Both the position numbers and the translations under genes were made by a program. The notes under the pieces are model-generated. The model made no database searches. It worked only from the letters and a program-made list of their open reading frames with translations, and had not been told where the DNA came from. 64,000 nucleotides of DNA from the NCBI GenBank assembly GCA_026025075.1, contig JAPEUI010000065.1, positions 1 through 64,000 of the forward strand, in the 5' to 3' direction. Positions 33,101 to 39,796 of the stretch are shown one piece after another. This stretch comes from Vezdaea acicularis. Its lineage: Eukaryota. Numbering within the stretch: position 1 is the stretch's first letter; each line of letters begins with the position of its first letter.

Positions 33101-35999
33101 CACACGGTGGCTCGCAACTCTCACGGCCAGCTTTCGAGAGATTCGGTGAAGTGGGAAGGCCTGGCCACTGGTCTTCCGGAGAAGATCATGTCCAAGGTCT
33201 TGGGTGCCTTTGAAAGGACGCTCGTAGACGTTTTCGAGAGCATGGGGAATTGGAGATATGCCATTCCAGATGAGAAGCTGGAAATCGCTTCCAGGCTGCT
33301 AGGTACCTTCGACAACATTCTTTCATACGCCTATGGCATCGGCGAGTCTGCGAGCTTAGATGACAAGATTACTTCGGTCCTGGCGTCCACAGCAGAACAC
33401 CTTGTCGATGTCTTCCTCTCGTCTTCCTCAAATGATCTCCCAAGTCAGCCATTCCTTCGCATATTCGATGAGGGCGCTAGTACGCCAGCCACCACGCTGT
33501 ACTTGAAGACCCTCGAATGGTTCATCTCGGAAGTAACTAATGGCCTGAAATTCTGCGTTACTCTGGTGCGGGTGGGGAATATCTTGAACAGGCCACCTTC
33601 ACATCTCGAGAGCCTCCTGTTCCAAGCTTCACCACTACTGACCAAGCTTTACGTTGCACATGACTCCTATCGAATACTGGTCTTGCGATTATTCCATGCT
33701 TTAGTTGTAAGCGCAGGCTCGTTGAAAGAAGAACCGCCTTCACTACTCGGCCATCTAGGGCCTGTGGCAGCCAAATCTTTCTTAAGCGTCCTATCTGATT
33801 TTGAGAGGCCTCTCAATAATGAGGAACTGGAGATCAGCATTTGGCATCTTCTTTCCGCGATAGTGAGCAACCGACAGCAGTGGTTATCAGTTTATTTGCT
33901 TACAGGAAAACCACCTCGAGAATCATTGAAAGAGAACGCCTCCGTTGCTGCTGGAAAGAGTCACGAGAGATCGCTATTGACCCTCGCCTTGGACGCGCTC
34001 TCGGATATTAAAACATTGTCCCCAAGAAAAGCTCTAGCTATGCTGGAGTTTGTTAGTTTTGCCGAAGACTACTGGCCATGGGCAATGACAGATTTACACA
34101 AACATCCTCGATTCCTCGCGGCCATATCTGGCTTTACCATGGGATTGGAGTCTACCAAAGAGCATGCAAAAACAGAGCACAATGCAACAGACTGCAATCA
34201 TATCCGAATGGCTGCTTTCGTTGCTGATATCCTTGGCATGTATACTCTCCATGCGCGACAACTCGGAAACACATCCTTTGCGGAAACGCTGGCCAAAAAA
34301 CTTGATTACTATGCCAAAAATGCCGTTAAAGTCCCAAGCTACAACAGCTCTCTTCATGGAAACCTAGCCAAAAATTTCAATAACAAGTTTCAGCCCTTCG
34401 ATTTGGCCAAGTTCAAGCGATCTCAACTGCATCACGCTGAGCTCGGACCGCAATATGTGTACGATATGAATCTTGCTACGAAAATGCTTAGCTTTGAACC
34501 TGTTTGGAAAGGGATTCGCGGAAATCCAGGGTTGGCAGCAGAGGTCGAGAGAGCTAACGTCAATCTTTCAAAAGTCGAAGCTCAAGTCGTAAGTAGCTCT
34601 TCAGGAAGGCGCCGGACATATGCTAACGTACTTCCAGGCGCTTTTGCAAGGCTGGAAGGTTCTTGCAACAGAACTCACAAGCGTTCTTCCTGGAAGTGCA
34701 AATCTGCGCGAGATCATGATTCAAGTAGCGAAAGACTGTTTAGTTGCCAATGCCAACAGCAATTTATCAATACATATATTCGAGAACCTAACGCATGTTC
34801 GAGCCGATCTCGCCTTTATTCTCTTACAACGTCTCCTAGAAACAAAGCCGGATGACCCCCATATTCACACAACACTTCCCTCGGCATGGGCCTTAGTCCG
34901 AGATCAGAACACTGGGCCAGAATACGCGCTCACCGGGCCAGATGCCGTATACAACCGCAAGCTCCTCCAAATCCTCCTCCTCGCACTTCGTGCAACAGCG
35001 CACAGCCCCTCACCACCTCAAAAAGCCTCGACAAACGGCACATCCCCTCACATACAGCCCGACTCCCCAACCATCTTAACGACCCTCGAAATCATAACCA
35101 CTCTCATTTTACCCACCTTCCGCTCTCTTGCCTCCTCCCTACACACATCCCCTACCACGACCAACCCAGCGGACTTCACCCTGCTCACCGCCCTCCTCCG
35201 CGCCTCCTTCCAGGTACCTGGCATCCACTACCACCAACCGTCCCTTGTGTCCGCCCTTGCAGCCACGAACACCATCTCTATCACCACGACCCTCTACAGC
35301 TGGTCCGACAACCCCAACCTCTGTCCAAACCACGACCCTATCTATGGAGACCTATCCATGCTCTTCCTACTCGAGCTCTCTACCCTCCCACAACTAGCCG
35401 AGCATATGGCCCTGGATGGCGTGATCTCCCAGCTTGCAGCCGCCAGACTGACGCAGTACGTTCAGCGCGGCGTCAACCCCCTCGGCGAGGTCGGGCACCA
35501 GCGCCTGTACGCCATCTGGGCCCGTGGTATCCTACCACTATGCCTGAACCTGCTCACCGCAGTAGGAGCTAGCATCGCGGTGGAGGTGAGCGCGTTCCTG
35601 GCCAGCTTTAAGGGCCAGCTGGAAAAGGCATCTGCTTTCTTCACGGTGCCACTGCCGGGACGGACGTCCATCACCGAAGGCGGTATGGGGGGAGCACTGA
35701 CGGTGCTCATGTGCAAGGAGGCGTATAGCCTTGCTCTCTTGACCGCTGTGTTGGACAAGGTCCGGAAGGCGGGAGCGGGCGTAGGGGTCCGGAGTGAGGA
35801 TGTGGTGCAGCTGGGATGGGATGGCAAGAGGGTGAGGGAGGATGTAGATGGGATTCTGACGGACGGGGTGGTGGCGCTTAGGAAAAGAATCGTGCCTGTT
35901 AGTGAGGTAGAGGTGGAGGGGCTGAGGGGCGAAGAGCTGGTCAAGAGGGTGCAAAGGGATTTGGAGGGGTTGGTGGAGGTTCTAAGTGAGGATGAATGA
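30199..35999 (+). CDS. NUP188: Nucleoporin Nup188; introns 30270-30321, 31292-31363, 34589-34637
   Basis: Large helical protein from three long ORFs joined in frame. Motifs YFPSL...I|SWK, IDELSALRITILEWQSRP, EEPPSLLGHLG, NRQQWLSVYLLTG, LYAIWARGILPLCLNLL. Confidence 0.88.
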
Positions 36000-36238
36000 G
36001 GGGGAGAGTGGGGAGTTGTTCGAACTGCATAGCGCGTCCTGAAAAGCGTTCTTCTGATCTAGACACAGAATAGATGAGAGTGCTATCAATGGATTCGTGG
36101 GTTTTGATCCAATTTAAGACCGCTAATTCTAAGAGGCGTTCGCTTTTTTGGAACTCCGTACTCCATCCTTAAGATGTCTACAGTACAGTACAGAAAAGTG
36201 CATGAAAAAACGGTTCCACCCGTCCTAGATCATTCCTC

Positions 36239-37170
36239 CTACCTATCGCCCCCAGGCGGCCCCCCCGGAAACCCACCAGGGGCTCCCGGCTGCCCAGTCG
36301 GACTCATCTGCGGCGGCGGGAACCCACCCGGCGGGAATTGGAAATTCGGCGGCATCGCACCTGGAGGAGGAAGCCCCCCGGGCGGAGGGAATGGCATACC
36401 ACCCGGCATTTGCGGTGGTCCGGCCTGCCCTGGAGGCGGGAAGGGCATTGGAAACGGAGGCATACCGCGACCACCTGGCACTATGAAATTCACATATCAG
36501 TATGAAGCCCAACACCAGAGAAAGCTCAAAGATATGACTGACTAGGTGGGAACCCCGCTGCCCCGCCCGGCCCCAACCCAAACGGCGGTGGCGGAAACGG
36601 TCCATCAGGTTGACCTATAGTGCGAATCAGCCTCTGACACAGCAAGAGCCTCTTTATCCCATATTCGACATACCACCTGGAAACCCAAACGGTGGCGCGC
36701 CAAAGCCTCCGCGCGGCGGCCCTTGGTTCTGGCTCAACATGGGGTTTGCGCCTGCTTGGCCCTCGGCGCCGTACGCGTTCGTGATGCTGTCGATTACCGA
36801 CTGTGCTTTTTCATGGCCGATTTCTGGTACAGGATGTCAGTCTTTCGGTCTTCTCAAGCGTGCAGTGGGTGGAGGAGAGAGGTGGGTTGGTGGGGCGATG
36901 TGAGCGTACGTTGATAGTAGTCGACTACGTTTCGTAAATGGTTACGGCCGCTGTTGTGGGCTTTCCGCACGCTCATCGAGTCGTGGGTGAGGTAGACATC
37001 GCAGTAGTCACCTAAAATGGTAAGCAAAGGCGCAATTAAGGTTGCTGAGCAGAAGCTTGGTATAGACCCGCATTGCTATGGTGGGAACTGAGGGCACCTA
37101 CAGAAGAGTGCACAGACAGGTTAGCTGAGCGCCAGAGGATTTTGAGAAGGGGATACTTATATTTCGGCAT
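36239..37170 (-). CDS. YHC1: U1 snRNP protein C; exons 37170-37161, 37107-37102, 37011-36910, 36823-36674, 36614-36543, 36480-36239 (intron 1 is AT-AC)
   Basis: Spliced product [54 protein letters not shown]... (U1-type zinc finger) followed by a Pro/Gly-rich tail. Confidence 0.92.
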
Positions 37171-37298
37171 TGCGGAACTTTTCAAGACGTGAGGAGAGCG
37201 AATAGATATGGTGAAGTGGCAATGAGAAGCTATATATCTACTGTCCGCTTTGTCGTCAAGCTTGAGAGAAATTCGTGTGAGCACGGCGGAGATTCACA

Positions 37299-37306
37299 GT
37301 CACGTG
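37299..37306. promoter_or_regulatory. E-box / Cbf1-type site GTCACGTG upstream of U1-C
   Basis: Exact RTCACGTG about 130 nt upstream of the ATG. The same motif occurs in the UPS1/WRS1 promoter. Confidence 0.35.
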
Positions 37307-37708
37307 CTTCGCCTCACAATGTCGAGGAGGTGATCATTTCACTGTTACTGTAACTAGCCACATGTATGAAGAGTGACGTTTGGTATTTGAAATTTCTGGC
37401 AACACTAGTGCTGTAATGTATGCCGAAGCCGCAATACCTAACTACAAGCAAAATCGTCACGGAACTCGCACTCGCCTCGAGAATACAAAGGATACGAAGG
37501 TTTGGTATCCAACAATCTGCACAAGAGCAGAAAGTTGATACACAGCACCTTGTGGTAGTGTAGGGAGCTTAGCTAGAGCCTTGAGTGCTGTGAGTTTCAC
37601 TCCCAATGTGCCGTGATCCAAAGGCCTCCATATCCGAACAAGAGGTGAGGCAAGTATTACCCCGAGATGGGAACAGAGACAGACTACCAACTTGTAGCAT
37701 GGCAAGAT

Positions 37709-39796
37709 CTACCATGAACTGTCGCGATACGAAGTGTCCTCAGTTGCTGGAGTATTCCAGTCACCACCATGGGCAGCCGGTGTACCCCAGTCTCCAGCGT
37801 TAGCAGACGGAGCATCCCAGCTACTTGCGTTGGCAACTGTGAATCCATCGCCGTTTCCAGCATTAGGATTCTCAAAGTCACCCATATCTACAGGAGCTTT
37901 TTTGCAACGAACAACAGTATGACCCACTACGCATGTCAGCTACCATTTTCTTTATGGATGTCGTCTCTACTCACTTTCGTTACAATTAGAGCACTTTACA
38001 CGGGAATAGTCTCTTGGCTTTGGACATTCCTTCGACATATGGCCGACTCCGTCACAGTTGCGGCAGACTATGACCCTTAGGTTCTCGCAATCTTTGGCCT
38101 TGTGCCCATCCTCACTGCAAAGGCATGTCAGTTTCGCTCGTAACTTTGTGTGTGTAGCATGCTTACCCGCAGTTGCGGCAAGCGAAATCGCCTCCACCGT
38201 TGGGACAATCTTTGGCGTAATGACCAACTATGATTGTGCATTAATAAACTTATATGATAGAGTATACAATACTGTCATATAACTAACCTTCGTTGCATCG
38301 TCTACATTCAACACCATGGGCAGGTTGAGGTTCGGTACACTCGAAAGCTTTATGGCCGGATTGTCTACATAAAGGTTAAGATGAATGCGGTGAGAATCTG
38401 TCACAAGGTATACATACTTGCAATTGCGACAAGCAAACTTGTCAACACGAGGGTCTGGACAGTCGCGAGCGCGGTGCCCTACCTTGTCACAATAGACGCA
38501 CTTGACAACGACTCGATCATGCTCCACTTTTTCCTCTTTACAAGCCCGGCTTTCATGGCCGAGAGCTTTCCAAGATAAACTTCAGCATTCCTTCAAAATA
38601 GAGAGTTTGTTGAGAACTCACTTTTGCAATTATCGCAGAACTTTATCCCACGATCGACGACACCGCCACAATCAAGCAAGCGTTCAAGATTTTCCTCGGG
38701 AGTACTTGGCCACTGTGCGCACATCCTTCTTCTGCTGGGCTTCGATGAAAAATGGAAAGACAACACATATGTGCAGTTAAGTTTTCCATTAAAGTCCATA
38801 ATGGTTTGCGTTTCGGCAATGTTTCTTGTCTACATGCAGTAGACAAGAATTAGCATGTTGTTCTAGGGAGATAGCCAAGAGAGCATCTGGATCATTGGCA
38901 ACATACAAGTGCAATAAGATAGGTGTTGAAGTTCAAAGCACGGAAAGATTGCTCTAGGGCTTGATATGTAGGCGCCCCTGAGTCGGTATGGTCCATGAGA
39001 AGAGCCCTCTGATATTGTTCAACAGCCTGAATGTTACAGTTAGCACGGTGCAATGCTCTTCAAAGGATTGACGAAAATGAAAAAGCACTCACTTTACGCA
39101 TTAGAGCAAGGTCCTTTTTTTGGTCAGCCTCAATGCATGCTTTCCAGGCATTATCAGTAGAATCAGCAGCTTCGCCATCAAAATCCCGAACACGGTTATT
39201 GGTGCAATCAATAGTCTCATGACCTACGAAATTGAAGTCAGCATCAAGCTTATGGCATTTACAAGGTAGAAAGTAATACATACCGTCCTGTTTGCAGTTC
39301 TTACAAGCTTCAAGGGGCTTGTCTGGACATTCAAAAGCTCTGTGTCCCACTTTTGAGCACGTTCTACAGGTGCCAGAGAAAACCCTAGGGTTTGGACAGT
39401 CCGCCTTTGAATGACTAGAATGATTGCCAAAATTAGTGCCCAAAAAGATGATGAAAACCAGATCAGACACTCACCCCTCTTCATTACAATTGAAACATGC
39501 ACCCTTTGATTCTCTGGGCAGAGTGCAATCACGAATAAAATGGCCAGATTCCCCACAACTAATCATAGCCGAAGGGGTCAGTAAAGATTGCACGGGGAAG
39601 GATTGAAAGAAAAGGCGTTTGGGAAAACAAACTTGTGGCATGAAGCAAAGTTAGCGCTAGCTAGAGCAGCATTTCCCACAAACCCGTCAACCAATTCCGC
39701 AACATCAGCCGCAGCAGTTTTCCAGTCAGTCAAGTCAAGAGTTTCACCCGAGTCATTAACAGGGGCTATCAACGGCCACAAGTCAGCAAATGCCAT
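37709..39796 (-). CDS. Multi-exon CCHC zinc-knuckle protein (fungal CnjB-like), 11 knuckles; start codon tentative
   Basis: Exons join through canonical introns to give repeated CxxCxxxxHxxxxC units (CHNCGESGHFIRDC, CFNCNEEGHSKADC ... CSNCNEMGHTVVRC), a central non-knuckle domain (WPSTPEENLERLLDCG) and a Trp-repeat tail. Confidence 0.85.

Follow-up and report, generated by a model that had tools for sequence, protein, structure and literature searches.

Introns that begin with AT and end with AC can be removed by the major (U2-type) spliceosome, and the portions of PMC5029451 and PMC1557818 that treat these introns report a 'very strong /ATAAGT consensus' at their donor sites. The same two sources cite an engineered AT-AC intron that is spliced in yeast, and a passage of PMC1557818 mentions that type II AT-AC introns have been hypothesised for some xylanase genes from filamentous fungi. 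According to part of PMC4299874, a G-to-A change at intron position +1 permits the first step of splicing and blocks the second step with an AG acceptor, and the 3' cleavage of Aspergillus telomerase RNA uses an AUA(A/C)GU donor together with an AG acceptor. A section of PMC2846911 reports that U12 components, U12 introns and U12 splicing are absent from Pezizomycotina. Here we describe the U1-C gene on the minus strand of a stretch of 64,000 nucleotides (nt) of the Vezdaea acicularis contig JAPEUI010000065.1, hereafter the window. A first-pass annotation of the window had proposed that the N-terminus of U1-C is encoded only if a U2-type AT-AC intron and a 6-nt microexon are both assumed. Its premises on the splicing of A...C termini by the U2 spliceosome and on the lack of a minor spliceosome in Pezizomycotina agree with the sources above; the AUAAGU-type donor in telomerase RNA 3' cleavage is documented for Aspergillus, whereas the annotation had named Neurospora. 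We consider it probable (about 0.85) that the intron in question is an ancient U2-type (type II) AT-AC intron, which would be removed constitutively by the major spliceosome and is followed by the microexon.

The first introns of the U1-C gene

The gene at positions 36239..37170 of the minus strand is U1-C (Yhc1/SNRPC) of a Pezizomycotina fungus. Exon 3 (36910..37011, 102 nt, starting with GTGACTACTGC / GTGACTAC) supplies the last two bases of the Cys6 codon and then the zf-U1 zinc finger, and it matched the Pfam zf-U1 profile (PF06220) with an E-value of 1.9e-17 over profile positions 7-38 of 38. Because exon 3 covers only these positions, the first six residues, including the first zinc ligand Cys6, must come from upstream exons. 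Exon 3 contains three of the CCHH ligands, Cys9, His24 and His30, and Cys6 is formed only across the junction between the microexon and exon 3. Exon 1 (37161..37170), with the coding start ATGCCGAAAT, encodes Met-Pro-Lys and the first base of codon 4. It is followed by intron A (37108..37160, 53 nt, ATAAGTATCC...GCTAACCTGTCTGTGCAC), which has AT-AC termini, the donor ATAAGT (37160-37155) and the branch motif GCTAAC (37125-37120); the branch A is base 37121 and precedes the 3' end, which reads CAC, by 13 nt. The 6-nt microexon TCTTCT (37102..37107) completes the Phe4 codon (two bases), contains the Phe5 codon and begins the Cys6 codon (one base), and intron B (37012..37101, 90 nt) is a GT-AG intron with the donor GTAGGT and the acceptor TTTTAG. 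Scripted joining of the junctions 37161^37107 and 37102^37011 gave an open frame with the N-terminus MPKFFCDYC, so that the layout, coordinates and product of the first-pass annotation were found in the sequence exactly as described.

The same annotation had stated that routes using only GT-AG introns end in stops, and translation reproduced both of its examples: from the GT at 37156 these routes gave MPKYK-stop and MPKYKCPQFPP-stop, and the unspliced reading also met a stop. The pattern ATAAGT-N(25-45)-CTRAC-N(9-12)-YAC-TYTTYT-GT occurred once in the 64-kb window and in none of 100 dinucleotide-preserving shuffles. Other ways of joining the exons were also considered. Stwintron or recursive schemes leading to MPKFFC through GT-AG introns only were rejected by hand, as the base after AAAT is A and any internal intron would therefore start non-canonically. 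A recursive route from the GT at +5 of intron A to the AG at +4 of intron B was rejected because it would again leave an AT donor opposite an AG acceptor. Two alternative junctions that yield MPKYFC, AAATA+CTTCT and AAATAT+TTCT, were rejected because they would need TA...CT or AA...TC termini.

Metagenome contigs were scanned with an alignment of the zinc-finger exon, which gave 309 confirmed relatives, and the counts below use the 80 loci that were kept (L001-L080). For parsing, the start codon was found, the microexon or exon start was located by its coding motif alone, and the flanking bases were read afterwards. In this manner, 79 of the 80 loci were parsed; L057, which ends at a contig edge, was excluded, and the first of two candidate microexon positions was used for L054. 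ATGCCNAAR was present at the matching place in 79/80 loci, the exception being L057. As evident from the parsed loci, the two ends of intron A covary: all 28 loci with an AT donor had an AC 3' end (26 with intron B and two, L073 and L074, without it), whereas all 45 loci with a GT (42) or GC (3) donor ended in AG (23 with and 22 without intron B), and six loci had no intron at either place. This covariation, A...C in 28/28 versus G...G in 45/45, strongly supports the earlier proposal that the N-terminus needs a U2-type AT-AC intron and a microexon. Conservation among related U1-C loci, which the annotation had suggested examining, was confirmed by a separate pattern search that found the AT-AC form in 28/80 loci, L054 and L063 among them. 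In addition, ATGCCNAAAT, the microexon and the reading frame were kept in 28/28 AT-class loci belonging to diverged lineages.

The motif T[CT]TT[CT]T was found between two introns in 49 of the 80 loci (26 AT-class and 23 GT-class). On the basis of its conserved position and coding content, this TCTTCT-type segment appears to be a microexon that is included in the RNA. The intronless and cDNA-like L040 and L041 matched the genomic GT-class locus L076 at 99-100% with exactly intron A missing; thus, the position of intron A is confirmed by transcripts, for a GT-AG species only. L077 and L079 contained no introns anywhere, and L035 and L036 were genomic and retained a later intron. A tree built on 177 coding bases was unresolved; it contained seven changes between AT and GT, of which the well-supported branches force only two.

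To describe the constraint inside the AT-AC class, the window and the loci were combined into 25 distinct AT-AC introns; the pairwise and U1-pairing tests were performed on 23 of these, without L054 and L063, both of which have the donor ATAAGT and the exon end AAAT. The 25 introns were 49-56 nt long, ended in CAC or TAC, and carried the donors ATAAGT (23), ATGAGT (1) and ATATGT (1). All 25 contained a CTRAC branch whose A lies 11-13 nt ahead of the 3' end, and joining the exons restored MPK[FY]FCDYC in 25/25. In four AT-class introns, an AG follows the branch and precedes the AC; its use would break the frame, and it is evidently unused. The interiors from donor to branch were near saturation, with a median pairwise identity of 0.54 (253 pairs among the 23 introns) and 2.8% of the pairs above 0.8; the AT-AC lineages are therefore old and their terminal bases are held by selection. 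With the sequences treated as independent, AAGT at +3 to +6 was found in 21/23 introns of the AT class versus 12/34 of the GT/GC class (p 2.6e-5), and A at exon position -2 in 23/23 versus 24/34 (p 0.004, treated likewise). Judged from these motifs, the stronger U1-pairing positions would be the expected compensation for the mismatch at +1, and a strong donor of this kind is described as characteristic of animal U2-type AT-AC introns (PMC5029451 and PMC1557818).

Intron B also differed between the two classes. Its donor began with GTAG in all 23 distinct AT-class sequences carrying both introns (GTAGGT 15, GTAGGC 5, GTAGGA 2 and GTAGAT 1) and in 0/15 GT-class sequences with the same microexon. 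The resulting string YAC/TCTTCT/GTAG/G resembles a canonical 3' signal, namely a pyrimidine tract followed by TAG/G, located 10 nt past the AC; it may help the AC site to be recognised early, or belong to an unproductive GT...AG route. Additionally, the intron B acceptor was AAG, normally the least favoured acceptor, in 13/23 distinct AT-class sequences (e.g. L001, L019, L055 and L054) versus 0/15 of the GT class. Three AT-class loci (L012, L043 and L070) had long B introns of 135-159 nt with a common inner block, ...TCATATCG.GC...TTCCGG...GCGAC..., which is absent from intron B of the window. Among the GT-AG-class loci with a microexon, nine (L004, L020, L032, L039, L046, L060, L061, L064 and L071) shared two motifs, one of them TGCGA-like and located about 17-20 nt into intron A, the other CGCGA-like and located near the start of intron B.

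Downstream of exon 3, the gene continues on the minus strand with an 86-nt GT-AG intron (36909-36824), exon 4 (36823-36674), which is similar to U1-C homologs, a 59-nt GT-AG intron (36673-36615), exon 5 (36614-36543), a 62-nt GT-AG intron (36542-36481) and exon 6 (36480-36239), which encodes a Pro/Gly-rich tail and the stop codon. The six-exon model comprises a coding sequence of 582 nt for 193 amino acids with one terminal stop, and it contains four GT-AG introns beyond intron A. The intron after DYYQ was absent in L034, L038 and L076 (GT class) and in L074, where exons 2 and 3 are contiguous. The U1-C genes of Pezizomycotina thus differ widely in their introns. An Rfam search of window positions 35500-38500 with E-values of up to 1 found no match. 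Neighbouring frames in window regions 34593-35996 (plus strand) and 37970-38581 (minus strand) matched the Nup188 C-terminal domain (PF18378, E 5e-98) in one case and CCHC zinc knuckles (PF00098) in others.

Taxonomic spread and database gene models

A protein search with the zinc-finger exon gave 702 matches, of which the best 120 listed were examined. Directly before DYC, these 120 homologs had MPKFFC in 52 cases (47 N-terminal and 5 internal), MPKYFC in three and MPRFFC in one. The read-through frames among the matches revealed two intron positions 6 nt apart: position A after ATGCCNAART, and position B within the Cys6 codon (T/GY). A read-through of the type MPKC... indicates a GT donor, and MPKY[KE]... 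or HSSVG (which corresponds to CAC/TCTTCT/GTAGG) indicates the AT form found in the window.

The taxonomic spread was judged from named database proteins by this signature only, with the class checked for five species. On this basis, the AT form was found in Eurotiomycetes (Penicillium rubens, MPKYN; P. capsulatum and Aspergillus terreus, MPKYK...; Polytolypa, MHSSVG...), Lecanoromycetes (Xylographa soralifera, MPKYK...; Lambiella, MPKYK...HSSVG...), Dothideomycetes (Microthyrium) and Orbiliomycetes (Orbilia brochopaga, MPKYKYLFRPPYPAVLTPPLLFC/DYC), and the GT form in Leotiomycetes and Sordariomycetes. The Orbilia codons can only be read with A as the first and C as the last intron base, and they leave room for a CTRAC branch whose distance from the end is 12 nt. 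Since Orbilia sits outside the clade containing all the other classes, AT-AC may be the ancestral state in Pezizomycotina, with GT-AG derived in Leotiomycetes and Sordariomycetes, as far as a single Orbilia gene model can indicate. Models of Fusarium and Metarhizium point to a form with intron B only (MPKFFCK...G/DYC).

The gene models themselves contained recurrent errors. The Eurotiales sample consisted of 47 named Penicillium, Aspergillus and Paecilomyces models, which are all the named ones among the 120 matches listed. Only 3/47 started with MPKFFC; 23/47 started at MSVRK and thereby lacked both zinc-finger cysteines, and 21/47 had other false N-termini, with some models reading through an AT donor (MPKYK...). 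MSVRK starts were also present in many models of lichen-forming fungi. Several Sordariomycete and Leotiomycete models had MPKC/DYC, in which the two phenylalanines are lost, and this is exactly the product expected if a predictor skips a 6-nt exon. The combination of an AT-AC intron and a microexon would thus explain a systematic error, as zinc-finger cysteines are missing, or N-termini false, in most of the U1-C models sampled from Eurotiales and lichen-forming fungi. A second recurrent annotation error in the U1-C gene concerns the intron after DYYQ, which was retained as coding sequence in many models (DYYQR...EIGHEKAQ, not DYYQQIGHEKAQ), including P0026, P0031, P0046, P0049, P0074, P0106 and others.

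Proposed constitutive removal and competing explanations

Intron A has the features of a U2-type intron: AT...AC termini, a donor of the form /ATAAGT and not /ATATCCTT, and a U2-type branch (GCTAAC in the window and CTRAC in 25/25). From these motifs and the reported lack of U12 splicing, we infer that it is removed by U1/U2/U4/U6 rather than by U11/U12. In the mechanism that we propose, U1 would recognise AAAT/AUAAGU via exon position -2 and intron positions +2 to +6, which are held at consensus and would offset the mismatches at +1 and -1, and the branch CTRAC would be used only 11-13 nt from the 3' end. In the second step, the usual G-G contact between the first and last bases would be replaced by A and C, the compensatory pair of yeast genetics, and AGs lying between the branch and the AC would be passed over. 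The intron A donor would be unable to join the AG acceptor of intron B, and TCTTCT would instead be joined to exon 3 by an ordinary GT-AG intron to give MPKFFC, in which Cys6 is put together at that junction. Splicing itself would be under purifying selection that maintains this arrangement, and the AT-AC state would be hard to leave. Because exit takes two changes, each of which alone should block the second step in an essential gene, the long conservation of AT-AC needs no regulatory role.

Several points weigh against this account. It leaves unexplained the constant GTAG of the intron B donor (23/23). The A/C covariation may stem from a single event, so that the p-values given above are measures of constraint and not of independent origins. 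Neither a cDNA-like contig (L040, L041, L077 or L079) nor a spliced-looking protein could be paired with an AT-class genomic locus; when 41 spliced-looking proteins and all stored proteins were compared with the loci by tblastn, no near-identical AT-class pair was obtained, the core being too conserved and the Pro/Gly tail repetitive. MPKFFC was found in three Eurotiales models (A. luchuensis XP_041539784.1, A. novofumigatus XP_024681050.1 and P. coprophilum OQE43614.1); these protein N-termini agree with the proposed product but need not reflect an annotated AT-AC intron. Finally, L074 (1-1045, 1045 nt) contains a complete U1-C coding sequence in which the 50-nt AT-AC intron is present and introns B and 3 are missing, and L075 (1346-2069), which is 81% identical to L074, has both of these. 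L074 could be a transcript with the AT-AC intron as the only one left in, or genomic DNA from which the others have been lost. If it is a transcript, the AT-AC intron is kept in some mature-looking RNA, which would fit inefficient or regulated removal better.

A broader alternative, which we regard as doubtful, is that the AT-AC termini are more than a frozen accident and have been selected for a role in the gene encoding the factor that recognises 5' splice sites. They might act through dependence on U1 performance, as a barrier to skipping of the microexon, or with GTAG serving as a surrogate AG. As to origin, the Orbilia read-through suggests an ancestral AT-AC state, and with its branch spacing of 11-13 nt, which resembles U12-type spacing, the intron could be a converted U12-type relic that persisted after the minor spliceosome had been lost.

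Dependence on U1 is the element that the first-pass annotation had favoured: the odd donor would make U1-C output a sensor of U1 small nuclear ribonucleoprotein (snRNP) activity, and unspliced or mis-spliced RNA with premature stops would provide feedback. We consider this unlikely. It is attractive that the product of the host gene stabilises the pairing of U1 with the 5' splice site and that the donor is mismatched at -1 and +1; however, if U1-C aids weak donors, the loop would be one of positive feedback and not homeostatic. Retention of intron A leads to a stop within 37 codons in 25/25 distinct AT-class sequences, but early stops are the rule for any retained 5' intron with a length that is not a multiple of three. 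Because the intron B donor always begins with GTAG, a route from the GT at +5 of intron A to the AG at +4 of intron B is available in 23/23 sequences with both introns, and it meets a stop within the translated exon-3 stretch in 20/23; L074 may likewise be an RNA that retained only the AT-AC intron. Unproductive-splicing feedback is known for U1C/U1-70K and for U11-48K/65K, as described in parts of PMC3798272 and PMC5473595, respectively. Against this, nothing that we observed speaks for autoregulation specifically: the two-mutation barrier is enough by itself to account for why AT and AC are kept, and the GT-AG lineages (45/80 loci) manage without the AT-AC form. Given U1-C as the host gene, a feedback role is plausible enough to merit a direct test.

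Somewhat less likely still is that the AT-AC termini safeguard the microexon: a donor starting with A cannot splice to the AG of intron B, so the microexon could not be skipped, and GTAG would aid early recognition of the AC 3' site. The block of the second step that a +1 A imposes with an AG acceptor (part of PMC4299874) is in line with this, and the AT-AC form accompanies the two-intron architecture in 23/25 distinct sequences. However, 15 distinct GT-AG lineages retain the same microexon without AT-AC, and L073, L074 and, as judged by read-through, Orbilia and Microthyrium carry AT-AC without intron B. AT-AC is therefore independent of the microexon and may predate it. The GTAG donor of intron B, which separated the classes as completely in an earlier set without L054 and L063 (21/21 versus 0/15, p 1.8e-10) as in the present one, and the canonical-looking 3' signal 10 nt downstream of the AC would suit a role in recognition of the AC site; in L074, however, no AG lies near the AC.

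It is very improbable that the arrangement is non-functional, whether through an assembly error, a pseudogene or a start elsewhere, such as the internal Met of MSVRK. Although the MSVRK start is the one chosen in 23/47 Eurotiales models, the proteins so predicted lose both zinc-finger cysteines, the 11-residue stretch upstream of the MSVRK Met is invariant, and the retention of ATGCCNAAAT, microexon and frame throughout the AT class speaks for function. A U12-type intron removed by the minor spliceosome, to which the AT-AC termini and the 11-13-nt distance from branch to 3' end could point, has next to no probability, as the donor is ATAAGT (ATAAGTAT) and not ATATCCTT, the branch is CTRAC/GCTAAC and not TCCTTAAC (U12 consensus as given in a section of PMC5029451), and Pezizomycotina reportedly have neither U12 components nor U12 introns (part of PMC2846911).

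Comparison with known systems

Full-text searches, which did not extend to subscription journals, found no description of an AT-AC intron or a microexon in fungal U1-C; the supplements of surveys of non-canonical splice sites, such as PMC7072748, could list it. U2-type AT-AC introns are already known, and this one is distinguished by its host gene, its age, the 6-nt exon next to it and the way in which it contrasts with the telomerase RNA site of these fungi. If constitutive removal is correct, a natural and deeply conserved U2-type AT-AC intron in tractable fungi without a minor spliceosome would offer a system for studying both the recognition of intron ends in the second step and the splicing of a 6-nt exon.

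Compared with the U2-type AT-AC introns of the animal genes SCN4A and SCN5A, as presented in part of Sheth et al. 2006 (PMC1557818), the U1-C intron is alike in its A at +1, its last base C, its strong /ATAAGT donor and its conservation over large distances. It differs in being a fungal intron of the U1-C gene that occurs across several Pezizomycotina classes, in its length of 49-56 nt, in its branch 11-13 nt from the end and in its location 6 nt upstream of the next intron. The Aspergillus telomerase RNA (Kannan et al. 2015, PMC4299874, in the part concerned) has the same non-canonical donor in the same fungal group and likewise undergoes the spliceosomal first step. In contrast to U1-C, its 3' site is AG, the second step fails and the RNA is cleaved, whereas the last base C of the U1-C intron should allow ligation. 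The same fungi would thus contain a natural matched pair, in which an AUAAGU donor gives ligation with AC (U1-C) and cleavage with AG (telomerase RNA).

An engineered yeast intron, reportedly that of Parker and Siliciano in 1993, combined G1A with a change of the last G to C. It has the same compensatory end pair and is artificial, whereas the U1-C intron is natural, conserved and located in an essential gene. U12-type AT-AC introns share the terminal dinucleotides and the short branch distance with the U1-C intron; however, the donor and branch of the latter are U2-type, and its host group reportedly lacks the minor spliceosome. The feedback systems of snRNP proteins described in parts of PMC3798272 and PMC5473595 likewise involve a spliceosomal-protein gene with an odd splice signal near its start, and their likeness to U1-C is possible rather than established. 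Finally, the ultra-short microexons of plants, as portrayed in part of PMC8831610, are likewise at most 15 nt long, conserved, coding and missed by predictors; the U1-C case differs from these in being fungal and in that its microexon is flanked by a non-canonical intron in one large clade.

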